A DNA stretch of 49,023 nucleotides from an uncultured Bacilli bacterium. Lineage in GTDB: Bacteria > Bacillota_I > Bacilli_A > RF39 > UBA660. Where the stretch lies: contig CALVOU010000004.1 in NCBI GenBank assembly GCA_944350365.1, forward strand, positions 1-49,023, written 5' to 3'. The notes below the pieces were generated by a model that was not told the origin of the DNA, did no database searches, and saw nothing but the letters and a program-made list of their open reading frames with translations. Within the stretch, counting starts at the first letter, position 1. Every line of letters starts with the position of its first letter. This document shows, piece by piece, positions 15,065-37,081 of the stretch. A program made the translations under genes and the position numbers.

Positions 15065-15082
15065 ACTTTAACCCTCTTCCTA

Positions 15083-15838
15083 CTAAATTTTATTGGCTTC
15101 TGTACTTTTCTTTTTAATCACTAGACAAACTATTCCTATCACTAGGATAGCACTGCCAATTCCAAAGATCAATCCCCAATTCATCGTAAACACTGTATCT
15201 TCACTTAAGATAATCTGCATTGTTTTTTTGGTGGCATTATTTTTGTTGATCTCCCAAGTATATTTCCCATTACTTTCTTTATCTGCATTATGGGAAACTA
15301 CTTTATGATTCGTTTTTAAATTAACTGTAATTGATTCTAAATTAGGATATATATCAAAGCAATAGTTTTTGGCAGATGTGGAAATAATTAACTGTTCTTT
15401 TCCTGTTTCCTCTTCATTATTTCTTAAAACCGTAAAGTAATCATAACAAGTATTTACTCCAGCCATTTTGGAAAAACCAGAAGTATTTTCCCAGGTATAT
15501 TCTTCTTTGTAAGTGATACCTAATTCCTCTTTGGTTTTAAATTTTTCTAACCCCTCTCGACGGGTTGCTTCATCGGCTGCGATTGTTTTAGAATTCACAA
15601 ATTCTTCAAAGGTTAATTTAGTATAATCTATTTCATTATCTTCGATCATAATATTGTTATCTTCTGATTCACCAGCCGCATTGTCTACGACAATATCATC
15701 CCATTTATTCCTATCCAATTCTACTAGTTTCCCATTTACTTTAATTGTCTGATCATGAACTTCTATATCATAATTCACACTACACCCAGTTAAGAGAAAA
15801 ATCAATAATAAACAAATATATAGTTTTTTCTTTTCCAT
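15083..15838 (-). CDS. Lipoprotein with an additional C-terminal TM anchor (LppM/DUF3153-like architecture)
   Basis: Lipobox LLTG-C; VVSHNADK..GKYTWEI; C-terminal TM followed by KKK. Confidence 0.7.
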   Translation of the reverse strand: MEKKKLYICLLLIFLLTGCSVNYDIEVHDQTIKVNGKLVELDRNKWDDIVVDNAAGESEDNNIMIEDNEIDYTKLTFEEFVNSKTIAADEATRREGLEKFKTKEELGITYKEEYTWENTSGFSKMAGVNTCYDYFTVLRNNEEETGKEQLIISTSAKNYCFDIYPNLESITVNLKTNHKVVSHNADKESNGKYTWEINKNNATKKTMQIILSEDTVFTMNWGLIFGIGSAILVIGIVCLVIKKKSTEANKI

Positions 15839-15850
15839 CTTTTTCCTCCT

Positions 15851-18565
15851 CTAATATCCAGTAAATGAGAAATGCATATAGTCTTTTGAACTAGTCCAAC
15901 TTCCACCCCAACTCCAACCATATTTAGCAAAGGTAGTAACTACTACACTATTTTCCGCAATAGAGTATGGATCTTCACCGGGTTTCCAATATGAACCAAC
16001 TAAAATTTGGCCATTTTTAATTTGATAGTTCTGATCAGGGTTGATATCACAAGCTACACCGTAACTATGATGAGAAGTAACATCTCTATTTCCTGACATT
16101 CCACGCCAAGAATAGCAAGCAAAACTATTAATCGGGAATCCAGCATTAATGATTTCTTGCATAGCATTTTGTACATCATTAGCTACTTCTTTATGAACTT
16201 GAGTATTAAAGGTATGATAGACCCCATTCGCATCTGGAGCCGTTATGGAAATCGTTGTTAGGTAACGTTGCATTTCGGATTTTGACGTTGGTAATCCATC
16301 TGGGAACAAATATTTCAACTTTTCGTCTCGAGATGCATTGACAATACTAGGATCTAAACTACTTCCAGAGCCACCTAATACCGATATTTGTACTCCTTCT
16401 GAGTAAAAGGTAGATAGTATAGTTCTATAGTATGTACTCCCCGTATTTGCGCTTGATGCCGCCATATCAGCAGCCGCTATTTGACTCATTCCACGACCAT
16501 GTCCTCCTGCGGCACGGGATAAATATTTATCACTAATTGTAATCTCGTTGCTTTCACGATTTGGTAATTTTACATATGTACAAGTATTACTTCCTTGACA
16601 ATTCCATGAATCGTATTCAGAAGAAAATATTTCCCCATTATAAGTTAAAACTTCACCAGTAGTTGCCGTAGCTGCTTCTAGGGATTGTTCAGAATAATTA
16701 GGAGTAAAATTTTGGGCATTGGAACTGTTTTCGATAGTGCTTTCACAATAGTTGGTACGATTCAAAACATAAGTTCTAGCAGCGACAGCTAAAGCTTTTT
16801 TCGCTTCAATATTAAAGTCAGCATACCCCATCTCTGCTTCAACAACACCAGCTACATATTCTTCCAAATCATATGTCCCAGAATATTCTCCACCGGTTAT
16901 AGTAACACCATTTGGACAACTTCCACTAACGGTAGGACGATAAGAAAAATCACAATTACGACCTGACCCCATATCGTTATATAAAAGATAAATATCTGCT
17001 ATGATATCTTTTATTTTTTCGTATCTTTCTGTACCTTCTTGAGGGGCACCACTACCACTAGGAAGATATTCTGCATAGTAGTCCCCAATAAAAGAGTCCA
17101 TCAAATTCCAATAGTATACGTTATTATCCATATGATTCAAGTCACCGATGTCCACTTCAGCGAAGCTCGTATTACTTGTTAAAACTTTAGGGTCACACTC
17201 TACCTTTGGCGTATCGAGTTTATTTCCATCACTATCGTATTCTTGAATAGTAAATGCAGGTCGATATAAATAATAGGCAATATTTCTCTCCTCATTTGCC
17301 TTCTTAGTAAGCCACTGAAACAGCCCTCCATCTAAATCATTTTGAGCAATTTCCCTTACACTACCACTTACTCTAATTGGTACGCCTTCGATAGTGTTTC
17401 CAACTTTAGTTAACCAATTATCCAAAAAGCTAGCAAACCCAGTTCTATATTCTGCTTTTTTAATATCTTCCTCTTTGGTGATTAACTGGGTTACCTCCTC
17501 GCTTTCGGTTTCTGGGTTAGTACAATATTTAATTTCATCTCCAGTATAAGGATTAGTTGTTGTCCATTCTTTATCTAATAAGTATACTTTTCTTTTGATC
17601 TGCATATTCGCAAGTAATTCTACTTGTTTAGTCATTTTTCGATAATCATGACTGTAGGTTAACTCTGCTCCATCAGAATCTTCAGATACTATTCCTTCTT
17701 CAAGATATTCATCATTAAGCATATTTACCGTAAGTGTTGCAGTAATTAGATTAACATCAATACAGACATTATATTTTTGAAGTAGTTCATCTTGTACTTT
17801 TTTTAAAGTCTCATAGTACTCTAATTCCCATTGTTCATCATCTTTAAAGCCAACGAAGTTTTTCAAACTATCCCAAGCTCCAGAAAAGAAATTGATTACG
17901 GCTTGGGCTGGACTGATAATGACATTAAGTATTGCCATAAAAACGACTATAATTATTAGAAAACCACCTACTGAAGCTATAATTGGTATCAAAAATTTCC
18001 AATTCTTTTTTATAGCTCCACTTATTGCTGCACTTCCACTATTATTTCCTTCTATATCAGCACTATTAGCGCTAGAATTATCGCCATTTAGCCCAGAAAA
18101 TAATGAATTTGATTTCGAATTTGCTTGAGCATCAGCTCCATCTTCTAAACCTTCCCTCTTTAGTCCTTCTCTTTGCATTGAGGGATCTTTAGGTGCAGGA
18201 GTCGTTCCTCCACTAGCTCCTGATGCCATTCCTTCTTTCGTTCCGCCACTCATAACGTCCATACCCTTATTTGCAGCATCCAAAGCTCCTGATTTATCTG
18301 CTATCTGGGAAGCTCTTCGCATAGCCGGATTTTTATTAATTGCATTTCCCGCTTTTTTTTCTATTGCTTGTCCTAATTTTGTTTTGCTAGCCATGTCATA
18401 GGCCATTCCACCAGCTGACCCACCAAAGTAAGTAGCGGCAGCTTTACCCGCAGTATGAGCGGCTTTTTGCCCAGAATCAGGTTGTTGACTATTACTACTC
18501 GTTTCATTATTAGAATCATCATTCCTTCTGGCATGGTATTTTGTATTATTTTCGTCCTCACTCAT
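15851..18565 (-). CDS. Membrane-anchored peptidoglycan hydrolase, SpoIID/LytB domain + M15 peptidase (VirB1 analogue)
   Basis: TM near aa 190-220. SpoIID motifs LEEYVAGVVEAEM, EAKKALAVAARTY, GHGRGMSQ. M15 motifs SHHSYGVACDINP, WGGSW..KDYMHFS. Confidence 0.88.
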   Translation of the reverse strand: MSEDENNTKYHARRNDDSNNETSSNSQQPDSGQKAAHTAGKAAATYFGGSAGGMAYDMASKTKLGQAIEKKAGNAINKNPAMRRASQIADKSGALDAANKGMDVMSGGTKEGMASGASGGTTPAPKDPSMQREGLKREGLEDGADAQANSKSNSLFSGLNGDNSSANSADIEGNNSGSAAISGAIKKNWKFLIPIIASVGGFLIIIVVFMAILNVIISPAQAVINFFSGAWDSLKNFVGFKDDEQWELEYYETLKKVQDELLQKYNVCIDVNLITATLTVNMLNDEYLEEGIVSEDSDGAELTYSHDYRKMTKQVELLANMQIKRKVYLLDKEWTTTNPYTGDEIKYCTNPETESEEVTQLITKEEDIKKAEYRTGFASFLDNWLTKVGNTIEGVPIRVSGSVREIAQNDLDGGLFQWLTKKANEERNIAYYLYRPAFTIQEYDSDGNKLDTPKVECDPKVLTSNTSFAEVDIGDLNHMDNNVYYWNLMDSFIGDYYAEYLPSGSGAPQEGTERYEKIKDIIADIYLLYNDMGSGRNCDFSYRPTVSGSCPNGVTITGGEYSGTYDLEEYVAGVVEAEMGYADFNIEAKKALAVAARTYVLNRTNYCESTIENSSNAQNFTPNYSEQSLEAATATTGEVLTYNGEIFSSEYDSWNCQGSNTCTYVKLPNRESNEITISDKYLSRAAGGHGRGMSQIAAADMAASSANTGSTYYRTILSTFYSEGVQISVLGGSGSSLDPSIVNASRDEKLKYLFPDGLPTSKSEMQRYLTTISITAPDANGVYHTFNTQVHKEVANDVQNAMQEIINAGFPINSFACYSWRGMSGNRDVTSHHSYGVACDINPDQNYQIKNGQILVGSYWKPGEDPYSIAENSVVVTTFAKYGWSWGGSWTSSKDYMHFSFTGY

Positions 18566-20386: not shown

Positions 20387-20931
20387 GATACTGACACCGT
20401 CCCAAACGTAGTGGTTCTACCACCATTTAAAAAATTATCTAAAATAATTCTTAAATCTTCATTACTAGTCTGTCTAGCCATTAACCCTGCTTGAGCTAGA
20501 CCACTAATCAATGCTCTTACTTTCTTTTGAAGTAATTCCAAATTCTTTTCCTTAAATAAAATATAGTACTCCGTATCAACAACATTATTGTGCATGAAAA
20601 AATTTCCTTTTTGGATATCCTCATTAATAAGCTTTCGAATAGCGGGGTTCTGTTGATTTTGGTAAAGTAATTGAAGTTGTGATAAATAGATCGATATATC
20701 GACAGGTCTATCCGCCACAATTAACCAGAATTCATAATCAATTGTATTATAAAAATTTTTCAATGAGGTAATGATACTGTCTTGAGCTTCTCTTTCCAAG
20801 ATAAAGATGTTCCTAGGTGTGATTTTGACACCACTTACTTTTTCTTGATTAGGAAGAATAATCATCCCATTAGAGATAGATTGAATATTAATCCAATTTT
20901 CTGTCCATTTACTCTGATTCTGTTGACTCAT
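20383..20931 (-). CDS. T4SS accessory protein resembling the N-terminal part of VirB4/TraE (TrsD-like)
   Basis: TENWINIQSISNGMIIL..VKITPRNIFIL...QDSII..LKNFYNTID pattern; sits between PrgI and VirB4 with overlapping start/stop codons. Confidence 0.7.
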   Translation of the reverse strand: MSQQNQSKWTENWINIQSISNGMIILPNQEKVSGVKITPRNIFILEREAQDSIITSLKNFYNTIDYEFWLIVADRPVDISIYLSQLQLLYQNQQNPAIRKLINEDIQKGNFFMHNNVVDTEYYILFKEKNLELLQKKVRALISGLAQAGLMARQTSNEDLRIILDNFLNGGRTTTFGTVSVS

Positions 20932-21226
20932 CTAGAATACACCAACCTTTCCATATATATATTCTTCTATTAGTAAAAAACGTATAAATTTCAATTATTA
21001 ACTGTAGTATATTATGGTAATATGCAACTGGAGCTACTAATAAGGAACATACTATCCCTGGAGTTACAGATAAAACAGCCGCCCAAGTTTGTTCCATGGG
21101 CATTACTGCTACCAAAATTAATGTTACAAATATACCAACACCAAATATAATTAAATCAACTGGTCTAAACAAACCAAATATATACTGTCCTCTTTTTACG
21201 TTGGCTGGTATTAAAAAAGTATTCAT
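20909..21226 (-). CDS. PrgI/VirB3-like two-TM protein
   Basis: FLIPANVKRGQYIFGLF..DL, two TM helices, directly upstream of the VirB4 module. Confidence 0.75.
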   Translation of the reverse strand: MNTFLIPANVKRGQYIFGLFRPVDLIIFGVGIFVTLILVAVMPMEQTWAAVLSVTPGIVCSLLVAPVAYYHNILQLIIEIYTFFTNRRIYIWKGWCILDESTESE

Positions 21227-21244
21227 CTAATATCACACCTTTCT

Positions 21245-23098
21245 CTATCCATCCATATGACCTGGATCAAACATATCATCACTATTTACAGTTTTCGCTC
21301 CCTGATTATTCTCATTTCTGTCCGTATTGGTGGCATTTTGTGCATCTGCCGTTTTTGGTTCTTTTACTTTTGGGGTTATTGCATCACCAGTATAAGATCT
21401 ATATTTTTCTGGCTTAGAATGAATATTTGAAGCGATTTTTTCATTTAATTCATCTTTAGTAGTTATGCCTTTATTATAATTTTCTTTACCCCCACTATTT
21501 CTAATTGCTTGATATGTTGGTTTTTTACTATAATTATCCGCTGCTGTACTTTTTGGAACTAGACTATCACGAGCTGATTTTGCTTTTTCATAAGCATCTT
21601 TAGCATCAGAATATATTTGAGAAGCTGCTCTAGCATTTTGCTGTAAATTTCGCGCAATTTCTGGATCGTATTCATATTTTCCACTTTGTACGCCTGTTTG
21701 ATATTCAGCAAAAGCATCTTGTGCTCTTTGAGACTCTGTGCCATAAGCTTCCATTTCATTTTTTAATTCTTTAACATTTGAAGCAGACAATCCCAATTTA
21801 TCTGCCCTTTCGTCACCAGCTCTTGCAGTTGCTCGTTCGCTCAACCGAGTAGAAAGTCTATTTGCTAATCCACCCTTAGCATTTTTGTCACCTGTTCTAA
21901 GTTGAGCAGCTAAATCACTGCCTTTACCCCAACCAGCTGTTCCAGACTTTCCTTGGGCAGCGGCATCGGCATTTTCATTCATTGCCTGTGTTCCAGCCGT
22001 TAAAGCCCCTACTAAACCTGCACCACCAACTGCAGCTCCAGCGCCAGCAAGTACTCCACCTAAGCCAACGCCAAAGCCACCTCCTTCTTTTATACCAAGC
22101 GCTTTAGAGATAAACTTAGGCGCCTGCTTAGCGAAGAAAAACAAGCCTATAATTAAGAATACAATTAATACAAGTCGTCTAAAGAATGGAAGTGTAGCAC
22201 CTATACTTAGTCCGCCTTGAATAATTATCTCATCAAGTAAGTATAATACCAAATACAAGACTCCTAATTTTATAAAAAGATCCAACCAAGTAGATATAAG
22301 CAATTTAGTCCAAGAAGCAAAAGCACCATCCTTTGATGATTTAGGATCAATATAGCTAATAATAGGAATTGGTGCTATCATCCTCAATATCAATAATTTA
22401 AATGCTCGAATAGCTACATCAATCGCAATTCCTACTAATAAAACCGTCATAAGAATAGCAATTACCGCTCCTATAATGATTTTATACTGATATTTGAATT
22501 CAGAGTTATTGCCATCTGCTGGATCACTGATTACACTGGCAGCTCCCTCAACGGTATTAATACATGTGCTAGAATCACTCGGATCCGGACACATCAGATC
22601 AGCATCTCCCTCACCCAAAGATAGTTGAAAAACTGACCAACTAACAGAATCAGATATACCATCCATCTCTTCTCCCGTCGACTCTGTACTAGTATTACGA
22701 CCAATTATAATACGTGGTAAAGCTTCTAATAAATCTTCTTGTACACTTTGCATTAAATTAAATACAGCGGGAAAACCAATTAACATAATTAAAACCACTA
22801 CTGTTCTAGTTACCATTTTACCCATACCTTTTTCTTTATCCGCTATTTTGTCAGGGCTTACTAAATAACTTAGTAATGAGACAGTAACTTTAAAAAGCAT
22901 GAAAATTCCTAAAAATATATAAATCCTATTTTGTAAGCTATCAAAAACACCATCCTGAACAATATCGGCATTAGCAATATCAAAAATAACTTGCAATATC
23001 CACCCAAACACGGTAAAAGCAATAGAGTCTATGAACGCAAAAAAATCACGCAATGCAGTAGTAATCAGATTTCTTGATAAACCGAAAAAAATTAGCAT
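21245..23098 (-). CDS. VirB6/TrbL-like polytopic membrane protein with a long hydrophilic C-terminus
   Basis: About 6-7 TMs; IRAFKLLILRMIAPIPIISY...F.SW.K motif; Gly/Ala-rich segment then coiled coil; canonical position between pilin and PrgI. Confidence 0.78.
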   Translation of the reverse strand: MLIFFGLSRNLITTALRDFFAFIDSIAFTVFGWILQVIFDIANADIVQDGVFDSLQNRIYIFLGIFMLFKVTVSLLSYLVSPDKIADKEKGMGKMVTRTVVVLIMLIGFPAVFNLMQSVQEDLLEALPRIIIGRNTSTESTGEEMDGISDSVSWSVFQLSLGEGDADLMCPDPSDSSTCINTVEGAASVISDPADGNNSEFKYQYKIIIGAVIAILMTVLLVGIAIDVAIRAFKLLILRMIAPIPIISYIDPKSSKDGAFASWTKLLISTWLDLFIKLGVLYLVLYLLDEIIIQGGLSIGATLPFFRRLVLIVFLIIGLFFFAKQAPKFISKALGIKEGGGFGVGLGGVLAGAGAAVGGAGLVGALTAGTQAMNENADAAAQGKSGTAGWGKGSDLAAQLRTGDKNAKGGLANRLSTRLSERATARAGDERADKLGLSASNVKELKNEMEAYGTESQRAQDAFAEYQTGVQSGKYEYDPEIARNLQQNARAASQIYSDAKDAYEKAKSARDSLVPKSTAADNYSKKPTYQAIRNSGGKENYNKGITTKDELNEKIASNIHSKPEKYRSYTGDAITPKVKEPKTADAQNATNTDRNENNQGAKTVNSDDMFDPGHMDG

Positions 23099-23111
23099 AT
23101 TACACCTCCTT

Positions 23112-24629
23112 CTATTTTATACCGCACATAGGGTCGACACCTGTACCATCTACATAGTGAAGTATATAACTTAATATTGTTGGAACAAAGAAAATCGCAA
23201 TACATACAATGGCTCTTTTTATAAATTTACTTCCCGCTTTTTTTAGTGCATCTTTATCATCTAATAGTACAGCTTGCCCAAAATCAACACTTCCTAATAC
23301 AATAAGTATAATTGGTGCAGCTATTTTTACATATCCAAAAATCTTATCAATTGTAGATAATAATTTATCTCCTAATAATCCTTCACAATCTAGTCCATCA
23401 TAAGGATCGCCAAGAGCAATACTACTAATTTTATTTTTAAATTTTTCAAAGCTATTATCAATCAAATCATTTATTTGATCATTTTTTTGATTAAGATTAT
23501 CCAATATATCATCTTTATCTGAGTCATCAATAGCATTAGCAGCCTCTACACACTTTTGGGCCTTTTCTTTTGCATCATCATTTAAATTAATTGCCTTCTG
23601 TTTTAGCTCTTGAATCTTTTTGTCAAAAGAATTTATAATTTTTTCGTTTACTTGTTCATCGGATAATGAAAATTTACAATTCGAATAATTGTTTTTGACA
23701 CTTGCTCGAATATTTTCAATTTCATTTGCATTTAGATTATAACTATCAATATTTTTGATGAGATCTTCAATTGCATTTAATGGGCCATTACAATAACTTT
23801 CTATCTTATTTTTGTCAGTATAATCACTAGGATCGAACGATTCTTTATTAATTAGTCTTTGTAAATTTACTATTTTTTCATTAATATCCGATGTAATCTT
23901 ACTATCGTTTACTACCTTATTAATTAAGCTATTAATTTCATTTTCATCTATAGTACATTGACGATTTTCAATTGCATCATAACCACCTGTATCTTTACCA
24001 TGACAAATTGATAAAGGTTTTGTCACACCACTAATCCAACTAAAAACTTTACTACCATTACAGTCAATCGAACTTGGCATCGTTGTTAAAAGAGTACCAG
24101 TTATGTTTTGGGCAACATATATTTTAGGGCAATATCCTTCAGAGGTTAATTTAATGCTTACATTACAATTGGTTCCGGTACAGCCATTATCTAAAACGTC
24201 ATGAACTCGTTCTTTTTCCCAGCCAAATGCATTTTTCATTGTCGATAGGAATTTTTCACTATTACGGTCACCTTTAAAAAGTGGACCACTTATCCAAGTA
24301 TTCTTTCCTGTTTTATCCAAAATTTCTTCTACATCGTTTTGGCTTAATGTTAAGTTTCTTACACTAGATTCAAAACACTCATCATCTTCTACAGTGCCAT
24401 TAAAATCAGAGTCCGTGCAGTCTCTACTGGTACCAGTTGATAATACTAATTCATCATTTTCATTTACAGAAAATTGTATTTTAGAATAGTTGCCATCAAT
24501 CTCCGTGTTTAGGTCATACTCATATGTACAAGTAGTAGGTTTAGCCTCTACCCTATCTCCCAATAAAAAAAAGAAAGCAAAAAAACATAAAATTAAACTT
24601 ATTCTATTCATTATTATTTTTTTATTCAT
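23112..24629 (-). CDS. Large Cys-rich secreted domain fused to a C-terminal VirB2/TrbC-like pilin domain
   Basis: Signal peptide ending VEA-K. The last about 90 aa (CEGLLG..APIILIVLGSVDFGQAV..DDKDALKKAGSKFIKRAI..IFFVPTIL) align with the neighbouring 113-aa pilin. Start reassigned to ATG 24629. Confidence 0.8.
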   Translation of the reverse strand: MNKKIIMNRISLILCFFAFFFLLGDRVEAKPTTCTYEYDLNTEIDGNYSKIQFSVNENDELVLSTGTSRDCTDSDFNGTVEDDECFESSVRNLTLSQNDVEEILDKTGKNTWISGPLFKGDRNSEKFLSTMKNAFGWEKERVHDVLDNGCTGTNCNVSIKLTSEGYCPKIYVAQNITGTLLTTMPSSIDCNGSKVFSWISGVTKPLSICHGKDTGGYDAIENRQCTIDENEINSLINKVVNDSKITSDINEKIVNLQRLINKESFDPSDYTDKNKIESYCNGPLNAIEDLIKNIDSYNLNANEIENIRASVKNNYSNCKFSLSDEQVNEKIINSFDKKIQELKQKAINLNDDAKEKAQKCVEAANAIDDSDKDDILDNLNQKNDQINDLIDNSFEKFKNKISSIALGDPYDGLDCEGLLGDKLLSTIDKIFGYVKIAAPIILIVLGSVDFGQAVLLDDKDALKKAGSKFIKRAIVCIAIFFVPTILSYILHYVDGTGVDPMCGIK

Positions 24630-24661
24630 AATATTCCCCACCAAACACATTTACTAACATT

Positions 24662-24670
24662 ATTATAGCA
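24662..24670 (-). promoter_or_regulatory. Extended -10 promoter upstream of the pilin-fusion/VirB6 genes
   Basis: TGcTATAAT on the minus strand; poor -35. Confidence 0.55.
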
Positions 24671-24720
24671 TAAAAAAAATAATAACAAAATATAATTTTG
24701 CTATTATCGTATATACTTTA

Positions 24721-25062
24721 TTAGTCTAGATTATTCCAGCAATCTTTCCATGACTCTGTTCCACCAACACTATCAGAATCGGTAGCACCAGAGCTAGAGA
24801 ATAATCCCATCAATAAAGACACAATTGTTGCAACAAAGAATACTGCAACAGCTGCAATCGCACGTTTAATTAATTTACTGGTTGCGCCTTTAATCTCTTT
24901 ATCATCACTCGACATAACAGCTTTTCCTAGGTCAATAGATCCCATAAGAATTAACAAAATAGGAATACCTATTTGGATGATTGGGTAAACACCATTTTTA
25001 ATAAATTTAAAAACAGGAACCAAGTCAGATGGGCAAGTCAATATTTCTACTAAATCAAACAT
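24721..25062 (-). CDS. VirB2/TrbC-like T4SS pilin (probable major subunit)
   Basis: 113 aa: two hydrophobic helices separated by the charged loop SSDDKEIKGATSKLIKR; Cys near each end; RBS GAGGAGG. Confidence 0.8.
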   Translation of the reverse strand: MFDLVEILTCPSDLVPVFKFIKNGVYPIIQIGIPILLILMGSIDLGKAVMSSDDKEIKGATSKLIKRAIAAVAVFFVATIVSLLMGLFSSSGATDSDSVGGTESWKDCWNNLD

Positions 25063-25089
25063 CGTATTTCCTCCTCTTAATATAAGTCA

Positions 25090-25118
25090 ATCATATATCA
25101 AATTATTTATATAGTCAA
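25090..25118 (-). promoter_or_regulatory. Internal SigA promoter for the VirB2-like pilin
   Basis: TTGACT-17 bp-TATGAT. Confidence 0.7.
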
Positions 25119-25161
25119 TATTTATTTACAAATTTTTACATGGAGTACCTTATTAACTAGT

Positions 25162-26157
25162 TTAACCAACACTATATGTACTAATTCCTAAACGATTTAA
25201 TAGATCCGTTAGTACTTCAGAGTTATTCGCTCTCTCATCTAGCGGTGGTAAGTTAAAGAACACTTTCGTTCTTGCTTCATACTCAAATTCGGTAATATCT
25301 TGATTAGTTAATAGACTCTTGGCTAAAACTATTTTTTTACCACGCAAATTTTCAAAGACTTTTCTATCACGACGAATCAATTTATTTAATTTTATCGTAG
25401 AAGGTTCTACTAAATAAATAATGTCTGTACATAGTTCAACATTTCCGTCATTATTCAAATCAACTAAAACTACTGCAGCATCGCGATGTTTTAATAACTC
25501 TGGGGCTAAATTTTCCTTATTTACAGAAATTAAACTTTTATCGTTGATATAAATAAAATCTCTTCTTCCCACTTCAATAGCAACTACTCTTTTTCCCAAT
25601 TGTTCTAATTCTTTTTTTAATAAGTAGGTCAACATAGTTGCCCCAGCATGATCAGTTAAATTTTTAATTCCTAAAATAAACGCACCACCACTTACTACAT
25701 TATTGATTACAGTTGCTCCCATATCACCTGTCACAACCGGTGCAATTGGTGTTGTAGTACCAGTACCACCGCCAACATCAATTTGATGGAGATGCGCAAC
25801 ATCACGATAAGTATTTGGATTAGTCAGTAAATAGTTAACACCATCTAAATTGGTAGTAAAATTATAGATTCCCATTGAGATCAATCTGGATAAAAACTGC
25901 GGAGCTAGGCACTCTGGGGTGTCTGGTAAAAGAATAATAATTTTTTCTACATCTAACGCCATAGAAAGTTTCTGGAGATTACGAATATCTTGATAGTCTT
26001 TTAACGCTGTTAAATCTAGAATCATTCTCCCATAGAAAAAATTACTGAACATATTAACCAATTCATCGGCATCAAAAACCCCATGAATGGATTTAATTAC
26101 TTCTATATCTAAATTAGCAAGCTCTGCCTGCCTTTCATTAGATATGATTACATTCAT
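25162..26157 (-). CDS. CpaE/TadZ-like protein (receiver-like domain + degenerate MinD/ParA ATPase)
   Basis: N-terminal alpha/beta domain, G/T/P linker, then ILGIKNLTDHAGATMLT (deviant P-loop without Lys), VVAIE, VVLVDL; Tad gene context. Confidence 0.65.
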   Translation of the reverse strand: MNVIISNERQAELANLDIEVIKSIHGVFDADELVNMFSNFFYGRMILDLTALKDYQDIRNLQKLSMALDVEKIIILLPDTPECLAPQFLSRLISMGIYNFTTNLDGVNYLLTNPNTYRDVAHLHQIDVGGGTGTTTPIAPVVTGDMGATVINNVVSGGAFILGIKNLTDHAGATMLTYLLKKELEQLGKRVVAIEVGRRDFIYINDKSLISVNKENLAPELLKHRDAAVVLVDLNNDGNVELCTDIIYLVEPSTIKLNKLIRRDRKVFENLRGKKIVLAKSLLTNQDITEFEYEARTKVFFNLPPLDERANNSEVLTDLLNRLGISTYSVG

Positions 26158-26184
26158 CTAAATCACCTTTCTTCTCTATTTTGT

Positions 26185-26724
26185 CTAAGATGGATCTACG
26201 ATAGCTCCTCCTGTTGAACTTCCGCCGGTTTCTGAGTTGTTTCCAGATGAGAAGATCAATGAGGTCTCTCCTTCTACTCTAAATAATCCTGCTGTTACTG
26301 GTAATAGTTTATTGATAATTGGAATATCCATATCGACAAAAGTGGCTATTGAATAATAGGAACCTTGATATTTATTAGTAGCCTCTGTATCCCCTGTAAC
26401 ATCTACTTTTTCATGTTTATAGCAAAAATTACCAATTTCTGACTCGAATACTTCATAACCATTATTTTTACACCATGTACTATAACCTTCATGATGCAAA
26501 TGATAGTTCACACTTTTCATATATTGCACAATTTGAGTTGCCGCATTATTATTTACACCATTAGCATTCATTAGTCCTTCATTTTTTTCAATAATACTAA
26601 TGATTTCATTTTTTACACGGAAAGCCTTCGTATAGTTTACAGAGAATGCAAGATAACCATTTACTATCAACATAAATATTACAATAATTTGAAGAGACAT
26701 TGCTCCACTAATTGCATCTTTCAC
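26185..26724 (-). CDS. TadE-like minor pilin
   Basis: GTG start. Short leader MKDAISG, hydrophobic helix, amphipathic helix (KAFRVKNEIISIIE), Cys pair; follows the Flp-like pilin. Confidence 0.65.
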   Translation of the reverse strand: MKDAISGAMSLQIIVIFMLIVNGYLAFSVNYTKAFRVKNEIISIIEKNEGLMNANGVNNNAATQIVQYMKSVNYHLHHEGYSTWCKNNGYEVFESEIGNFCYKHEKVDVTGDTEATNKYQGSYYSIATFVDMDIPIINKLLPVTAGLFRVEGETSLIFSSGNNSETGGSSTGGAIVDPS

Positions 26725-26757
26725 ACTATCACCACTCTATTCTTTATTTTGTTAGTT

Positions 26758-26916
26758 TTATTCTACTTGTACATTATCAGTATTACTAATATTATCCCAT
26801 TGATCAGTGATAGCATTCTTAATTTGTGGCCACATAAACCAGAAAAAAGCTACAATTGCACCAATGGCAATAATCGTTACAACTGTCATATTTAATTCAC
26901 CTGTTGCTTCTTTCAT
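26758..26916 (-). CDS. Flp-like major pilin, 52 aa (absent from the ORF track)
   Basis: MKEATGELNMTVVTIIAIGAIVAFFWFMWPQIKNAITDQWDNISNTDNVQVE. RBS AAGGAGG, its own promoter, located between tadC and tadE-like genes. Confidence 0.8.
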   Translation of the reverse strand: MKEATGELNMTVVTIIAIGAIVAFFWFMWPQIKNAITDQWDNISNTDNVQVE

Positions 26917-26938
26917 TCCTTATCTCCTCCTTATTATC

Positions 26939-26967
26939 ATTATAACATATAAACATTCATTATCCAA
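26939..26967 (-). promoter_or_regulatory. Internal SigA promoter for the Flp-like pilin
   Basis: TTGGAT-17 bp-TATAAT with extended TG (TGtTATAAT). Confidence 0.72.
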
Positions 26968-26977
26968 TATTTTTAAA

Positions 26978-27775
26978 TTAAATACTTGAGAACATGTAAA
27001 TCATAGCAATCAAAATTAGAACCATAACTCCACCACCTGTTGCTACTAACATAATCATGGTTTGACTCTCCATGTAATTTAATCGCTCTTTATATTTTTG
27101 ATCACGCGCTTTGGCTTGTAGATTAGAAACCGTTCTAGAAAACATCAATAAACGCTCTTGTTTTCTTTCTTGAGAACCAAGTCCTAAACGATATAAAAGT
27201 CTCATCATTCGCATCGAATCTCTAACCGGATACTCGTTAGCAAAATCCATATAAGGATCTATACTAGAATCCCCAGCATCAATTTTAGCAATTAATTCTC
27301 TAAGTCCTGGTTTAAAGATATCTGGCGCTTCTTCAATCGATTTAGCAATAGCAACTGGTACCGTATAATGTTGAACTAGAATTTCTAATCCCTTTAAATA
27401 ATATGGCAACATCACGTCAATATCATGTAAATGTTTTTTATAATATTTTTTTAATGAATTATAGCGTGATTTAAATACTAAGTATCCTACTACAATCGAT
27501 AATACAATATTTATCGTATTTAATTCAGATAAAAAGATAACTAAGAAAGCAACAATAGCGATAAATCCTTCTTTTAATCGTTTATTGTACAAAACATTAG
27601 CATCTACTTTATCTCCGTATTTAGCAGCCACCAAGAAGTCAAAATCGTCTTCTTTTAACATCCCTAGAGCCGCTTCATTGTCCTTAAAAAATTTTTTACC
27701 ATCTACGACATTATTATATAGTAATACAGCTAAAACAATCACTCCACATAGAACCACTTCCATATTATTCAGCAC
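26978..27775 (-). CDS. TadC-like (T2SS F-domain) pilus platform protein
   Basis: TMs plus LPYYLKGLEILVQHYTVPVAIAKSIEEAP F-domain pattern and a C-terminal TM; second of the two platform genes after the ATPase. Confidence 0.75.
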   Translation of the reverse strand: MLNNMEVVLCGVIVLAVLLYNNVVDGKKFFKDNEAALGMLKEDDFDFLVAAKYGDKVDANVLYNKRLKEGFIAIVAFLVIFLSELNTINIVLSIVVGYLVFKSRYNSLKKYYKKHLHDIDVMLPYYLKGLEILVQHYTVPVAIAKSIEEAPDIFKPGLRELIAKIDAGDSSIDPYMDFANEYPVRDSMRMMRLLYRLGLGSQERKQERLLMFSRTVSNLQAKARDQKYKERLNYMESQTMIMLVATGGGVMVLILIAMIYMFSSI

Positions 27776-28658
27776 CTACATTCTCGTTATAATATTTTTC
27801 ACCTTTGAGGAGAAAATAACTATTGACTAGCAGTACCGCATGTAAGATAACTACCATAAACGGATTAGATAAAATCGATATATAAGTATCCCTACCTAAT
27901 AAGTATTGAACTAGCATGACCAATAAGTATAGCATAACTCCATATTTTAAGAAACTCTTATGGAAAGTTGCCCTATCCATCCTATCACGGTAAACACTCT
28001 CTACTAGCATATCGATATCTAATTGCATATTTTCTAATGATTCTCCTGAATCCTTAGCGCCTTCTTTCGTAATCTGTAAAAACAGTTGGTGCATATTTTT
28101 TACGATATAGTATGGATATTTACTAGACATAAATTCAATGGACTCATCAATAGAACCATTTTGATAAGCAAGAGAAATCATCATGTTTACATCACTTAAG
28201 ACTGGCTCTTCTAATACGCCTGAAGCAACGACACCTTCTAAGGCTTTTACAAAACTCTGTGTAGTTGCAAATTCCATAATTGTATTGGTTGTATAAATTT
28301 GAACCTGTTCAAAGATATATTCACTATATACTCTTTTACAGCGCAAGAAAGCAAGATATGGGATCACAGATACTGCCAAAATTACATAGATAATGGAGAT
28401 CAAAACATTGTAAAAATACATATATGTAATTACTGCAGTAAAAATAGCAAAAGTCGCAATCTGAATTGCATATTGTTTAACAGTGTATTCCTGTCCTAAT
28501 TCTTTCGTTTTTTCTCGCACTACTTTAAAAGAATAGGGGGCAAATTTATCGTAAACTACAGCTGCTTGTTCAGTCATAAACTTATAGACATTTTGACCCT
28601 TATAAGAACGATATAACATAACAAATATCGCTATAATAAGAAGAATGATTAATTCCAT
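27765..28658 (-). CDS. TadB-like pilus platform protein
   Basis: Multi-TM protein with cytoplasmic F-domain (SFVKALE..); immediately downstream of TadA/CpaF. Confidence 0.75.
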   Translation of the reverse strand: MELIILLIIAIFVMLYRSYKGQNVYKFMTEQAAVVYDKFAPYSFKVVREKTKELGQEYTVKQYAIQIATFAIFTAVITYMYFYNVLISIIYVILAVSVIPYLAFLRCKRVYSEYIFEQVQIYTTNTIMEFATTQSFVKALEGVVASGVLEEPVLSDVNMMISLAYQNGSIDESIEFMSSKYPYYIVKNMHQLFLQITKEGAKDSGESLENMQLDIDMLVESVYRDRMDRATFHKSFLKYGVMLYLLVMLVQYLLGRDTYISILSNPFMVVILHAVLLVNSYFLLKGEKYYNENVGAE

Positions 28659-28672
28659 ATTTTCACCACCTT

Positions 28673-30154
28673 TTAGCTCAATGTTCCATTATCAGATTGA
28701 TTATTATTTGAAATCGACCCAAAATCAATAATTTGTGGTCCCATTCCTGTTGCCATACCGTCATTTAACGGGGGAACTAAATTAGGAGTCACATTGGGAA
28801 TTGGATCAGCTAGTTTTGAAATTGTATCTACACCTGGATTTACATTTGGGATTGATGAAGTTGCTTTTGATTCTGGTGTTGGTAAAGAATTTACGGTTTC
28901 TATTTTAGAATCCGATTGTACTAGTGTAGTGTGAGCAACTTCGTTTGCTGGATTAGAAACAGTTTGTACGTTTGAGTGATCAGATAAAGTTGATCCACCT
29001 AGAGTTGGCGCTTCTTCTTTCGTTAAATTCACTGTTGCTTTGTTTTCTTGACTATCTCCCATCGCTTCTTCAAAAGACAACCCATTATCCTGATCTTCAT
29101 CATCAAATCTTATATTTTCTACATCGATATTTTGAGCAAGCAAATAATTAATTAGATGTTCACTTGGTTTTACCTTAGTAATCTTGCCCCCCATCGTTTT
29201 CTGATAAAGAACACGGTAAATTGGTTTATTGGTTTCCTCATCGATATAAAACTCCGTAATCTCATCTATTTCACGATGAAATTTTCCATATTTCTTACTA
29301 TAGTATGCCTTAATATGTACACCAAGTTGAACATAGCGATAAATAGTATTTAGAAACTGATCAACATCCAATTGACTTTCCATTAAGGAATACATACGAT
29401 GTGGTATAGCTGATGCTTTATCTGAGTGAATGGTCGACAAAATATTGTGCCCTGACGAAATGGAATTTCGAACTGCACTTACTGCTTCAGCACTACGTAC
29501 TTCGGAAAGTAAAATCCATTTGGGATTCTGCCTCATACATGTAACTAATACATCACTATATGAAGCAATATTATTGGTCTTCATTGCTACAATATCCCGC
29601 GTTGGATAAATCTTATCCAAATGCAACTCCAATGTATCCTCAATGGTAATTATCTTTTCATTTTCCTTGGTATGGGAGGCTAAGTATTTAACAAATTCTG
29701 TTTTTCCGGAACCAGTCTCTCCACAAACCATAATATTACAATGTCCATGAACGCATTGGATTAAAAAATCGTGAATATCTTTGGTAATATAATCCTCTTT
29801 CAATAAGGTTTCTTCTTTTAATCTAATTTTAGCTGGTGTTTTACGAATAACTAGTGCTATTCCATTAGTAGCAATTGATTCATGAACAAAGTTCATACGT
29901 AGCTCTGGACTTTCGGCATCTAGAAACGGACTGGCGTTATTAAATGTCGTTCCCATTACATTGGAACATTGGAAGGCTAGTTTTTCTACATCTGCATTAG
30001 TAATTGAATGATTTTCAACACGATATGACCCTTGGGTAAGCGATCTGACCCAAATTTGTCCATTATTGGTATAAGAAATATCTGTGATATCGTCATTTTC
30101 AATAAATTGACGGAATGCACCAAATTCTAGTTGTTCGAATAAATTTTCTCTCAT
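28673..30154 (-). CDS. cpaF: TadA/CpaF (VirB11-family) secretion ATPase with a low-complexity C-terminal tail
   Basis: ITDISY, LVIRK, Walker A GETGSGKT, Asp box ITIEDTLEL, MRQNPKWILLSEVRS, His box GH..STIHS. Confidence 0.92.
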   Translation of the reverse strand: MRENLFEQLEFGAFRQFIENDDITDISYTNNGQIWVRSLTQGSYRVENHSITNADVEKLAFQCSNVMGTTFNNASPFLDAESPELRMNFVHESIATNGIALVIRKTPAKIRLKEETLLKEDYITKDIHDFLIQCVHGHCNIMVCGETGSGKTEFVKYLASHTKENEKIITIEDTLELHLDKIYPTRDIVAMKTNNIASYSDVLVTCMRQNPKWILLSEVRSAEAVSAVRNSISSGHNILSTIHSDKASAIPHRMYSLMESQLDVDQFLNTIYRYVQLGVHIKAYYSKKYGKFHREIDEITEFYIDEETNKPIYRVLYQKTMGGKITKVKPSEHLINYLLAQNIDVENIRFDDEDQDNGLSFEEAMGDSQENKATVNLTKEEAPTLGGSTLSDHSNVQTVSNPANEVAHTTLVQSDSKIETVNSLPTPESKATSSIPNVNPGVDTISKLADPIPNVTPNLVPPLNDGMATGMGPQIIDFGSISNNNQSDNGTLS

Positions 30155-30175
30155 AGCCTTCTCCTTTACTAGAAG

Positions 30176-30203
30176 ATTTGGAATAGGTTTCCCTATTCCA
30201 AAT
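30176..30203 (-). promoter_or_regulatory. Intergenic 12-bp perfect stem-loop between cpaB and cpaF
   Basis: ATTTGGAATAGG-GAAA-CCTATTCCAAAT on the minus strand; weak U-tract, so partial terminator or RNA stabiliser. Confidence 0.6.
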
Positions 30204-30210
30204 ATCCTTT

Positions 30211-31062
30211 TTATTCTGTAGTATTGGTAATATTTCCACTATTATCTTCGGTCCAAACGGTAATTTGGTTAATGAAATCCTTTAATTCGTTATTGGCGAT
30301 CGCAACTTCGCCAGGATTTTTCTTTTCCCCTTCGTTTGTTGGAACTGGAATTAATGTTGCTTCATATGTTCTTAAGTACATTGTTTTTCTTAATAAAATG
30401 TGATATTCCTCTGGAACTGCAAAGATAATTTGGGCAGGTGTTTTAATATCTTCTAGATCTTCGAATACGGATGCTCCATTCGCATCTAAAACGTCGATTA
30501 CTTTAACATTTTCTAGTAACTTACCAATCATTATTTTATCTTCAGTTTGTTGTGTTGTTGTATTTCCAGCTGCATCAGTCACGTAATCTTGTTTTACAAT
30601 TTTTAAGTATATATCGATATAATTTCCAGGATAAATTTTATTACCATAAGTGTTAGTTGTATTTACTGACATATTAACTAAAACGTAGCCATCAGGATAA
30701 TCATAGATAATTGAATCTGGTAATTCATCCTTTTCTACCACACTTCCCTTATAGAACAAACTTCCTTGCGGAATTACCGTATCCGCATTGGCATAACGCC
30801 CAACGATTTGTGAAGAATCCATAATAGGATCTCCTTTTAACATAGCTGGAGGTACCTCTATTGTTCCAATCATTTCACTAGTAATTTTGGTTTTTGGTTG
30901 AATTCTTTGGGTAGCATATGGAACTGAGGTTGGATTAATTTGCGAATTAATACGATAATTATAACCAACATACAAAATAACTATACCAAGCAATACTCCT
31001 ATAATCGTTACCGTATTTTTGTTGGTAAAAAATCTTCTTATCGCCGTTTTTATATTATTCAT
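30211..31062 (-). CDS. cpaB: CpaB/RcpC-like Flp pilus assembly protein (SAF domain)
   Basis: N-terminal TM; SAF motif VPYATQRIQPKTKITSEMI..IVGRYA...IPQGS; RcpC-like IYPGNYIDIY and LLENVKVIDV. Confidence 0.85.
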   Translation of the reverse strand: MNNIKTAIRRFFTNKNTVTIIGVLLGIVILYVGYNYRINSQINPTSVPYATQRIQPKTKITSEMIGTIEVPPAMLKGDPIMDSSQIVGRYANADTVIPQGSLFYKGSVVEKDELPDSIIYDYPDGYVLVNMSVNTTNTYGNKIYPGNYIDIYLKIVKQDYVTDAAGNTTTQQTEDKIMIGKLLENVKVIDVLDANGASVFEDLEDIKTPAQIIFAVPEEYHILLRKTMYLRTYEATLIPVPTNEGEKKNPGEVAIANNELKDFINQITVWTEDNSGNITNTTE

Positions 31063-31087
31063 TTTTTACAATCTCCCTTCTTTATTC

Positions 31088-31516
31088 TTAGTTTACTTCG
31101 CCTAATAATCTATTTTCATCATATTTAACTTCTAGGATAGCATCAATTCGGTTGACAATATCAAATTGTTCACCGGCAAAGGTAGCTATTGTCCCTGACC
31201 CTACCTGAATACTTACTTTAGGTGGTGTCTCATTAAAATCTAAAATCCTGATTTTATAATCTGTATCCGCAGTAGCACTTTCAGCAAATCTTCTAACAAA
31301 ACTTTCTAGAAACTTTTCTCTGTCACAACGAATGATTCCACCGCTAACTCGGTAGTATCCTAGATCTACCGAGTCGATCATTGCGGCTTTAGTGGTTTCG
31401 TTTAATAAGTAGTAGTCCAGGTCATTACCAGATGAATAACTAGTTACAATATTAACAACCGCTAAGGTTAGGACACCTAATATGATAATTCCTACTAAGC
31501 TCATTGCTTTACTCAT
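31088..31516 (-). CDS. DUF5411-like small pilin-like protein
   Basis: N-terminal hydrophobic helix, then DYYLLNETTKAAMIDSVDLGYYR..G.I..D.EKF.ESF.RRFAE and PPKVSIQV. Confidence 0.65.
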   Translation of the reverse strand: MSKAMSLVGIIILGVLTLAVVNIVTSYSSGNDLDYYLLNETTKAAMIDSVDLGYYRVSGGIIRCDREKFLESFVRRFAESATADTDYKIRILDFNETPPKVSIQVGSGTIATFAGEQFDIVNRIDAILEVKYDENRLLGEVN

Positions 31517-34442: not shown

Positions 34443-34454
34443 TTTAACACACTC

Positions 34455-35237: not shown

Positions 35238-35253
35238 TTTAACTTCTCCTTAT

Positions 35254-37080: not shown

Positions 37081-37081
37081 T

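Follow-up and report, generated by a model that had tools for sequence, protein, structure and literature searches.

The pilins of the VirB2/TrbC/TraA family (Pfam PF04956) are small hairpin proteins of two hydrophobic helices and a basic loop, their genes adjoin those of VirB3, VirB4, and VirB6, and the hairpin termini may be linked to each other, TrbC and the T-pilin being cyclised head to tail. A pilin module with a grafted bulky binding module is represented by FimH of type 1 pili and by PilB/PilC of Streptococcus sanguinis. In T4SSs the tip protein VirB5 (pTi VirB5, pKM101 TraC, and R388 TrwJ) is separate, lacks a pilin module, possesses an N-terminal membrane helix of its own, and is modelled in the review PMC12857230 as an exposed, variable, helical target-binding subunit that is placed on VirB6 and starts the fibre. 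According to the same source VirB2 and VirB5 are absent from Gram-positive T4SSs, the Patescibacteria being given there as the one exception. The Pfam family T4SS_pilin (PF18895) was used to call the VirB2-like pilins of the Patescibacteria (Microb Genom 2025, PMC12102498; bioRxiv 10.1101/2025.01.22.634366), whose monoderm MPF-FATA-type T4SS is described there as lying on a small-genome chromosome and as including VirB6, PrgI/VirB3, a separate VirB4-N-like protein (TrsD), and tandem divergent pilin genes near virB4, in a cluster without relaxase. Further relevant systems are relaxase-bearing, mobile plasmids of Bacillus such as pAW63/pBMB67 and pLS20, in which a block of Tad-like ATPase, CpaB, and TadB/C is found with VirD4, TrbL/VirB6, PrgI, and VirB4, and the Mycoplasma ICEs, in which a small pilin-like protein (Mbov_0395, NCBIfam NF045849) is encoded beside Mbov_0396 (VirB6-like) and Mbov_0397 (VirB4).

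The locus described here belongs to an uncultured Bacilli bacterium (GTDB lineage Bacteria; Bacillota_I; Bacilli_A; RF39; UBA660) and was analysed within positions 1 to 49,023 of contig CALVOU010000004.1 (assembly GCA_944350365.1), hereafter the window; unless stated otherwise all features lie on the minus strand. Two adjacent genes are in focus. The first (24721..25062) encodes a small pilin-family protein of 113 aa without signal peptide, is preceded by a strong AAGAGGAGG ribosome-binding site, and consists of a short acidic N-tail with Cys10, helix 12–51, a basic loop, helix 54–90, and an acidic C-tail with Cys108; the AF2 model is a two-helix hairpin (pLDDT 81.8). The second was listed as an ORF of 512 aa (23112–24650), and its likely start is M8 at 24629, since a GGTGGGG stretch stands upstream, orthologues start at MNKK, and P0001, a cluster representative of 505 aa, shares 99% identity; this gives a long protein of 505 aa (23112–24629).

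The long protein begins with a signal peptide (residues 1–29, 24543..24629; hydropathy segment 4–29) that ends in VEA before KP and is kept in orthologues, an SP-like N-terminus being found by a crude hydropathy rule in 137 of 143 long relatives. It is followed by the head (residues 30–224, 23958..24542), a Cys-rich, hypervariable distal ectodomain which holds 9 Cys, is modelled by AF2 at low confidence, and has no Pfam family match, and by the stalk (residues 225–414, 23388..23957), a helical bundle with modelled helices at 229–403 and pLDDT mostly 84–96 over 225–405, for which fold searches returned generic helical bundles only among PDB matches. The C-terminal pilin-family module (residues 415–505; 23112..23387, stop codon included) comprises in order Cys415, a helix, the basic loop DDKDALKKAGSKFIKR, a helix, and a tail ending in DPMCGIK with Cys502, and confident helices are modelled at 229–403 and 415–493. 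With the hydrophobic N-terminus, 16 Cys (of which the ectodomain holds 13 and the C-terminal tail 1), and the modelled helices, the description of this protein in the original prediction as signal-peptide-bearing, Cys-rich, and helical is upheld; likewise neither Pfam scans nor fold searches gave an enzymatic family or fold for its N-terminal domain, and the ectodomain had no usable match in the ESM Atlas.

The gap-free alignment of the small protein to the end of the adjacent gene, from which the interest in this locus arose, was confirmed by BLASTP, which pairs residues 25–92 of the small protein with residues 437–504 of the 512-aa frame at 29/68 identities (43%) and 46/68 positives (E 2e-17), and the shared stretch lies in the DNA where it had been placed, at 23112–23387. 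Since the alignment takes in both hydrophobic helices and the basic loop (DDK..K.A.SK.IKRAI), the likeness exceeds mere hydrophobic composition, and the modules of the two proteins are homologous. Each loop holds 6 K/R against 3 D/E, the tails are acidic in both proteins, Cys is present on both sides of the hairpin in 217 of 218 module ORFs by a crude window test, and 131 long forms all share C415, P439, R472, and C502. The idea that the module is a local duplicate did not hold: in the tree each window module groups with its orthologues from other genomes and not with its neighbour, so that a recent local duplication was rejected, and the two modules are ancient paralogues. A large genome-wide set of paralogues was also not found, the genome having 2 module copies only, and the module HMM detected no other ORF of at least 40 aa in the window at E≤10.

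The small protein matches PF18895 with E 3.5e-4 and 21.0 bits over profile positions 9–71 of 71, and the long-form module alone with 17.9 bits over positions 3–71 of 71 (12.7 bits for the whole long form), so that neither window protein reaches the gathering cut-off of 26.6 bits. Among relatives 65 of 100 long (best E 2e-7) and 68 of 116 short forms (best E 3e-8) match at E≤0.01, and PF18895 is by far the commonest family match in both scans; the architecture of this family, with two hydrophobic helices, a short basic loop, and a gene beside the T4SS core, is also present. Agrobacterium-type VirB2 was not recovered, as hhalign of the 116-sequence module alignment gave a probability of 0.1% against pTi VirB2 and of 0.07% against 30 pTi VirB2 homologues, the latter profile being narrow and of rhizobial type only; PF04956 had no match in the window proteins even at E≤10, and a profile of 116 modules against all PDB sequences gave a best E of 0.21, which is noise, and no solved pilin. 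In fold searches of the PDB (Foldseek and VIA wide) the long-form model matched designed or generic helical bundles only, and the small-protein model matched generic hairpins only; no VirB2 or VirB5 chain was among the matches listed, which speaks neither for nor against such a fold. An NCBIfam scan of the 116 short forms gave noisy matches to membrane proteins. The label “VirB2-like” is therefore based on what the Pfam family is called, on the architecture, and on the place of the genes: the family link, the hairpin, and the position support the original prediction, but no profile likeness to Agrobacterium-type VirB2 was detected.

In comparison with VirB2/TrbC/TraA pilins the likeness thus includes the hairpin, the adjoining genes, the signal peptide of the long form and of many short relatives, and a Cys pair that could tie the hairpin ends, whereas sequence and profile similarity is undetectable and the small form of the window has no signal peptide. 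No VirB2 with an ectodomain of ~390 aa was found described in the literature searched. Of the Mycoplasma families, Mbov_0396 and Mbov_0397 are matched by the neighbouring proteins of the window, but NF045849 is matched weakly, with E 0.059 for the small protein and 6 of 116 short relatives at E≤0.01. The VirB5 family (PF07996) had no match in the long form at E≤10 and none in the window, which has no separate VirB5, and is absent from the 25 most frequent of 34 families in 100 long forms.

Directly downstream of the long form is the gene of a VirB6/TrbL-like polytopic membrane protein (21245..23098; Pfam TrbL_4, E 3.2e-10; NCBIfam MMCAP2_0566 / Mbov_0396), and in 64 of the 65 related loci with an identified VirB6 the nearest detected gene before it is a module gene. 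Further on are a VirB3/TcpE-like gene (20909–21226, 105 aa), a VirB4 split into an N-part (20383–20931, 182 aa) and an ATPase part (18599–20386) that match positions 98–276 and 296–890 of the NCBIfam model VirB4_plasma, and, by Pfam and NCBIfam scans, a SpoIID + M15 cell-wall hydrolase (15851–18565), a lipoprotein-like gene (15083–15838, 251 aa), and a VirD4-type coupling protein (12419–15064); the gene order of the T4SS block 12419..18565 is kept in related loci. Directly upstream of the pair a Tad-like module (25162..31516; Pfam, NCBIfam) comprises a 331-aa, a 179-aa, and a 52-aa Flp-like gene, two TadB/C-like membrane genes, a T2SSE/VirB11-like ATPase, a CpaB-like gene, and DUF5411; its gene order is kept too, and the 331-aa homologue stands directly before a module gene in 45 of 45 loci in which it was found. 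At the far end of the cluster a thioredoxin-fold lipoprotein is encoded on the plus strand (38758..39162; lipobox LVSGC, CTAC motif; Pfam Thioredoxin, TraF), and of 79 related loci, the majority of which end before this point, 6 have a homologue close to the cluster. The cluster also carries a sortase and Ig-like surface proteins.

With the Patescibacteria this locus shares the PF18895 profile, a monoderm T4SS of the MPF-FATA type, VirB6, PrgI/VirB3, a separate VirB4-N-like protein (the 182-aa ORF here), and tandem pilin genes, two here and up to 8 in relatives, in a cluster without relaxase on the chromosome of a small genome. It differs in its host, a Bacilli lineage, in the joined Tad-like module, and in members with a conserved flanking pair of Cys and with N-terminal ectodomains that reach about 550 aa, of neither of which a mention was found in PMC12102498 as far as consulted. 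The plasmids of the pAW63/pBMB67/pLS20 kind have a Tad-containing gene set too and are the best plasmid matches of the window's VirB4 (28.7% identity); however, the module HMM matched 0 of 468 ORFs (at least 40 aa) of pLS20 and the pBMB67 region at E≤10, and the module has no relation to the 126-aa gene that precedes TrbL in pBMB67 (hhalign probability 0.09%). Four Mob_Pre relaxase genes were found on other contigs of the genome. A mobile element was considered and rejected, since no relaxase or integrase family is present among the window ORFs scanned, BipA is located on VirB4's contig, about 8–10 kb apart, in many genus genomes, and a rhodanese gene comes after that of the coupling protein both in the window and in 5 related loci.

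The module genes lie on one strand in 79 of 79 related loci, in arrays of 1–8 genes. By the crude hydropathy rule 129 of 209 unique module ORFs have an SP-like N-terminus (99–654 aa), and the other 80 lack it and are short (72 of 80 with at most 175 aa); therefore the extension goes with export. In a scan of 22900–25400 the promoter-like sites numbered 16 where 15.5 were expected, and no terminator was detected between the small and the long gene; the scan therefore permits no statement on the stoichiometry of the two proteins.

The machine is much more conserved than the ectodomain. The VirB4 ATPase part is 85–95% identical in 26 of 28 other genus genomes, and BipA has 84–99% identity within the genus. 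The small form, without signal peptide, is the best conserved module member (median identity 71.7% in 11 genus genomes), the genus medians of the long form are 57.1% for the module and 24.5% for the N-terminal domain, and in a 13-sequence alignment the head and the stalk have medians of 16.6% and 15.7%. The metagenomic variant P0004 is identical at 274 of 281 positions (98%) over residues 225–505 and has an unrelated head, while in L016 the identities of head, stalk, and module (83%, 39%, and 82%) are discordant. Thus the expectation of a hypervariable N-terminal part beside a conserved module is borne out within the genus, with replacement of the head in P0004. Contigs from four runs of one study, compared over 21000–27000, all had essentially the window's allele, and no alternative head was seen in them. 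A single loose end at 23949 has an in-frame stop.

The module was found in 49 of 49 sampled genomes of the window's family against 3 of 351 others of the class sample, the pair of small and long genes is present in 23 of 24 genus genomes, and the module representatives at E≤1e-3 number 8849. In 72,556 plasmids tblastn gave no match of the long form at E≤1e-3 or of the small form at E≤1. No paper on such a module with a large head-and-stalk ectodomain was found in the literature searched.

According to the mechanism proposed here the two genes, which encode ancient paralogous forms of a single hairpin module associated with T4SSs (Pfam T4SS_pilin), would be parts of a vertically inherited chromosomal Tad-plus-T4SS machine of a small-genome gut Bacilli family. 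The 113-aa protein, SP-less and well conserved, is probably the plain subunit. The 505-aa protein would be exported via its signal peptide, with the hairpin staying in the membrane, the basic loop predicted to be cytoplasmic, and the Cys-rich head (30–224) presented outside on the helical stalk (225–414). C415 and C502 (C10 and C108 in the small protein) would then face outward and could tie the hairpin ends by a putative disulfide, and the thioredoxin-fold lipoprotein is a candidate oxidoreductase for the exported cysteines. Via the module the long form may dock at, or be assembled by, the adjacent VirB6/VirB4 platform and may serve as the target-recognition subunit, in a role like that of VirB5, and in the case of a fibre this would make it a minor pilin or a tip pilin; by analogy the design principle would be that of FimH and PilB/PilC, whose folds and assembly machines are unrelated. 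The chances appear to us evenly balanced that the long form is a target-binding subunit which is displayed on the surface, undergoes recombination, and is docked or assembled via the pilin module, and its fast-changing outer domain probably sets what the machine attaches to, although the sortase and Ig-like surface proteins of the cluster could supply adhesion instead.

The arrays of module genes and the missing likeness to VirB2 bear on three other explanations. It is rather unlikely that no fibre exists and that the hairpin is a membrane anchor or docking element of the translocon beside VirB6, the long form being a surface adhesin or wall-spanning stalk at the channel that does not polymerise with the small protein and does what separate surface adhesins do in other Gram-positive T4SSs. 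Such an arrangement would agree with the absence of VirB2 and VirB5 from Gram-positive T4SSs that PMC12857230 reports with the Patescibacteria as sole exception and with the undetected VirB2 similarity; besides, a thin fibre would leave little room for an ectodomain of ~390 aa on each subunit, and a helical stalk of 175 residues may be long enough for crossing the cell wall. However, it hardly explains arrays in which as many as 8 divergent module genes occur, some of them plain forms of ~100–130 aa without cargo, and both the good conservation of the SP-less short form and the PF18895 link across relatives argue against it. Sub-threshold Pfam scores of both window proteins, noisy matches to unrelated membrane families, and the negative hhalign result against VirB2 would even be consistent with a module unrelated to pilins, that is, a generic two-helix membrane element under a misleading Pfam name, such as a small assembly factor of T4SSs resembling TcpD, TcpE, or PrgF; this is highly improbable, because the T4SS_pilin match extends over almost the entire profile and is found again in about 60% of 216 relatives, and a separate TcpE/VirB3-like gene already occupies 20909–21226.

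The same arrays, with 2–8 divergent paralogues in relatives, may also be read as sets of alternative major subunits, the long form being one interchangeable pilin for antigenic or host-range variation, as proposed for the VirB2 paralogue arrays of Bartonella Trw and of the Patescibacteria, where 2–11 VirB2-like genes with a mean identity of 25% are reported in PMC12102498. Head replacement between near-identical alleles points in this direction, but here there is a single gene of each form, short and long, and nearly all genus genomes retain the two together; the SP and SP-less forms are largely separate lineages (15 tree changes against a shuffled mean of 63), which fits two distinct roles. 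Interchangeable pilins are very unlikely.

Returning to the long form as a target-binding subunit, these data make the pilin-family module used to call the pilins of the Patescibacteria a universal, vertically inherited feature of a gut Bacilli family, with an ectodomain that diverges far faster than the machine and is swappable between near-identical alleles. A farther-reaching possibility is that in this family a T4SS builds a VirB2-type fibre in a Gram-positive envelope and that recombining head-stalk-pilin fusions replace VirB5 and set the target cells as part of a dependent way of life, epibiotic or parasitic, that parallels the Patescibacteria; in this proposal the T4SS is core and chromosomal, the module occurring in all sampled family genomes and VirB4 being as conserved as BipA, and the proposal as a whole is speculative and, in our opinion, unlikely. 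If the module is not a pilin, it would still be a widespread T4SS-docking anchor for variable surface proteins, with 8849 representatives. If it is a true pilin, the T4SS would make up for the absent VirB5 by a fusion of adhesin and pilin, and the module would give a handle on the attachment targets of uncultured reduced-genome gut bacteria.

The small-protein ORF (24721-25062, minus strand, 113 aa), which is preceded by a strong ribosome-binding site, adjoins the 512-aa long-form ORF (23112-24650, minus strand). For the latter, M8 (24629) is the most likely start codon and yields a 505-aa protein: the orthologues begin there, and the cluster representative P0001, also 505 aa long, is 99% identical. 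The originally predicted gapless homology between the small protein and the C-terminus of its long neighbour was confirmed by BLASTP at the coordinates first given: small-protein residues 25-92 align with 29/68 identical and 46/68 similar positions (E 2e-17), and the aligned stretch takes in the charged loop together with the hydrophobic helices on either side of it. This shared hairpin, the module, occupies residues 415-505 of the long form, where it is delimited by BLASTP to the small protein, a Pfam PF18895 match, and invariant residues; it follows a signal peptide (residues 1-29, VEA before KP), a head (30-224) with nine Cys and low model confidence, and a stalk (225-414) modelled as a confident helical bundle (helices 229-403). 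The suggested count of paralogues in the organism's own genome (1.47 Mb, 80 contigs, 95.8% complete) gave two module copies, i.e., this pair, and the module HMM detected no further module among the other window ORFs of at least 40 aa at E<=10.

With respect to the Pfam T4SS_pilin family (PF18895), the small protein gave E 3.5e-4 and 21.0 bits over profile positions 9-71 of 71 and the long-form module alone 17.9 bits over positions 3-71, both below the cut-off of 26.6 bits. Among the relatives, 65 of the 100 long forms examined match at E<=0.01, the best of them at E 2e-7, and so do 68 of the 116 short ones, with a best E of 3e-8; every other family is far behind for both lengths. In AF2 models the small protein (pLDDT 81.8; helices 12-51 and 54-90) and the long-form module (helices 415-456 and 459-493) are confident helix-loop-helix structures. 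The loop of each module contains six K/R versus three D/E and the tails are acidic; the positive-inside rule would accordingly put the loop in the cytoplasm and both hairpin ends outside. The original prediction had regarded both proteins as VirB2-like; however, hhalign comparison of the 116-sequence module alignment with pTi VirB2 and with an alignment of 30 pTi VirB2 homologues gave probabilities of 0.1% and 0.07%, respectively, the module profile yielded only noise against all PDB sequences, and fold searches returned generic hairpins only. PF18895 is the profile by which VirB2-like pilins are called in Patescibacteria, according to PMC12102498. Since direct similarity to classical VirB2 was not found, the label is supported by the recurrent Pfam matches, the architecture, and the gene position, while membership of the classical VirB2 family is not supported at the sequence level.

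Across 131 long forms only C415, P439, R472, and C502 are invariant, of which C415 stands immediately before the first module helix and C502 in the tail past the second. Cys occurs only twice in the small protein, as C10 and C108, at equivalent places, and a crude window test revealed Cys on both hairpin sides in 217 of 218 module ORFs of the collected loci. With the two ends predicted on the outside, a disulfide joining them is plausible. Unlike TrbC and T-pilin, which are cyclised head to tail, the module would have this putative disulfide in the part of cyclisation. A thioredoxin-fold lipoprotein (38758-39162, plus strand; lipobox LVSGC, CTAC motif, also a match to the Pfam TraF family) is encoded divergently at the distal cluster end; of the 79 related loci, most of which stop short of this point, 6 have a homologue of it close to the cluster.

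The pair sits inside a minus-strand cluster at about 12.4 to 38.6 kb, whose transcription order starts with a surface-gene block (31530-38650, minus strand) including genes of a DUF4352 protein, an Ig-like surface protein, a class-B-like sortase, and a 970-aa protein without family, which provide additional candidates for surface or adhesion components. Then follow the Tad-like part (DUF5411, CpaB-like, T2SSE/VirB11-like ATPase, two TadB/C-like, 52-aa Flp-like, 179-aa, and 331-aa genes), the small pilin, the long form, VirB6/TrbL-like, 105-aa VirB3/TcpE-like, and split VirB4 genes, and finally the SpoIID+M15 hydrolase, a lipoprotein-like gene, and the VirD4 coupling protein. The 331-aa gene (25162-26157, minus strand) has no family match; judged by position, one may guess at a TadZ/CpaE-like part of the Tad module. 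In the split VirB4 (18599-20931, minus strand) the N-part (20383-20931, 182 aa) and the ATPase part (18599-20386, 595 aa) share 4 bases and cover NCBIfam VirB4_plasma at positions 98-276 and 296-890, respectively; the split is also present in related loci. No relaxase or integrase family was detected among the window ORFs scanned, and tRNA genes lie about 8 kb outside the cluster. Outside the window the same genome carries four Mob_Pre (MOBV-type) relaxase genes, on contigs C14, C67, C72, and C11, and no PF03432, PF02486, or PF03389 relaxase above cut-off; small mobilisable elements might employ the relaxase-less chromosomal T4SS.

A profile from 18 long forms, run against 1.84 billion representatives, matched 8849 of them at E<=1e-3, 5063 at <=1e-10, and 284 at <=1e-30, the full-length profile being biased toward long forms. 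Of the best 150 matches 143 were at least 250 aa long, and 137 of these had a signal-peptide-like N-terminus by a crude rule; none bore a functional name, the sole named record being a hypothetical protein of a MAG. The 79 related loci collected, many of which end at contig ends, carry labels such as uncultured Bacilli, Tenericutes, "Mycoplasma sp. CAG:776," and "Clostridium sp. CAG:302." In each of the 79 the module genes run on a single strand, in arrays of 1, 2, 3, 4, 5, 6, and 8 genes in 19, 34, 6, 15, 3, 1, and 1 loci, respectively; the gene detected directly before the VirB6 homologue was a module gene in 64 of 65 loci with VirB6, and the 331-aa homologue immediately preceded the (first) module gene in all 45 loci where it was found. 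A signal-peptide-like N-terminus is present in 129 of 209 unique module ORFs (99-654 aa, median 274) and absent from 80 (median 122 aa, 72 of them up to 175 aa). Short signal-peptide forms, composed of signal peptide, Cys, module, and ..DPxCG, resemble the long form minus its ectodomain, so that ectodomains vary from none at all to over 500 residues. In genera with a short pilin beside VirB6 a 365-396-aa protein is encoded just upstream of that pilin (L025:10388-11506 and equivalents in loci L059, L061, L064, L066, L075, L083, L092, L043, and L065); this protein, which matches no Pfam family, combines a membrane helix at the N-terminus with a Cys-rich body ending GSGT..DPYI.K and may be the in-trans counterpart of the ectodomain fused in cis in the window.

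The expectation of a variable N-terminal part on a conserved module was borne out within the genus, where identity is 85-95% for the VirB4 ATPase part, 37-63% for VirB6 (about the first two thirds only), and in median 71.7% for the small pilin, 57.1% for the long-form module, 24.5% for the whole ectodomain (11 genomes, 55 pairs), 16.6% for the head, and 15.7% for the stalk (13 sequences, 78 pairs each). The long-form segments diverge out of step: head, stalk, and module are 83%, 39%, and 82% identical in the long form of locus L016 and 54%, 33%, and 82% in that of L015. The metagenomic protein P0004 (539 aa) is identical to the window protein at 274 of 281 positions from C225 to the end, while its first 260 residues, including the signal peptide, are unrelated and had no match among 188 proteins and 3033 ORFs compared; the breakpoint coincides with the head/stalk border of the AF2 model. 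Such recombinational swapping of exposed parts on a conserved anchor is expected of a target-binding or immune-exposed surface component. In one contig of run X1 the match ends at 23949, 6 bases from the C225 codon, and the diverging letters beyond contain an in-frame stop. In contigs of runs X2 and X4 positions 24708-24821 (small-gene 3' end and spacer) are replaced by 109 other letters, and therefore the C-terminal tail of the small protein differs between strains.

In a poorly resolved, quick-search tree of 206 modules (105 columns) the signal-peptide label required 15 changes versus 63 on average after shuffling (none of 500 shuffles came down to 15), the "long" label required 18, and each of the window's modules grouped with its own orthologues; thus, the two modules are long-standing paralogues, and gain, loss, or resizing of the ectodomain took place on many occasions. 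A short-plus-long pair, in some cases three genes, was found in 23 of 24 other genus genomes, the missing one being 53% complete, and in 2 of 16 genomes sampled outside the family. Class-wide sampling showed the module in all 49 genomes from the window's family (about 40 genera, genome sizes 0.7-1.6 Mb) and in 3 of 351 from 29 other families. The VirB4 ATPase part, detected in 26 of 28 genus genomes (the misses 86% and 53% complete), equals in conservation the housekeeping GTPase BipA (84-99%, 26 of 28), and in many genus genomes the two lie on one contig about 8-10 kb apart; a rhodanese gene follows the coupling protein in the window and five related loci. According to this distribution, identity, and linkage the cluster is a core chromosomal system rather than a mobile element of sporadic occurrence. 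The BipA matches of genomes G001, G007, G008, G021, and G043 contain one or two in-frame TAG codons, which may precede the actual start codon.

In solved conjugative pili, such as the F-pilus structure, both pilin ends are exposed on the exterior and the lumen is lined by the loop, so that a graft at the N-terminus would face outward. Since 390 extra residues on each subunit seem too much bulk, the long form would be expected in a minor or tip position of the putative fibre. The preferred reading, which has about an even chance, is that the small protein would act as the plain subunit, while the long form, by means of the common module, would dock to the VirB6/VirB4 platform or be assembled by it as a displayed, variable recognition subunit. 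Polymerisation and binding are presumed. Of the alternatives, an anchored adhesin or wall-spanning stalk without polymerisation is rather unlikely, interchangeable major subunits are improbable, and a non-pilin hairpin is very improbable.

The Tad-plus-T4SS layout is shared with Bacillus plasmids of the pBMB67/pAW63 and pLS20 kind; the module HMM found no module among 468 ORFs of pLS20 and the pBMB67 region, and the pBMB67 126-aa gene before TrbL is unrelated. Full-text literature searches returned no account of this system in Bacilli and no VirB2-type pilins with large N-terminal domains. The nearest described case (PMC12102498, PMC12857230) is the VirB2-like arrays of Patescibacteria T4SSs, which have in common with the cluster the Pfam profile, the split VirB4 with a TrsD-like part (the TrsD-plus-VirB4 arrangement of PMC12102498), the chromosomal location, and no nearby relaxase. 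The pair is real and well conserved and belongs with the T4SS pilin-family arrays of monoderms, an already known kind, to which the fused recombining head-stalk ectodomain and the putative Cys clamp are the new elements.
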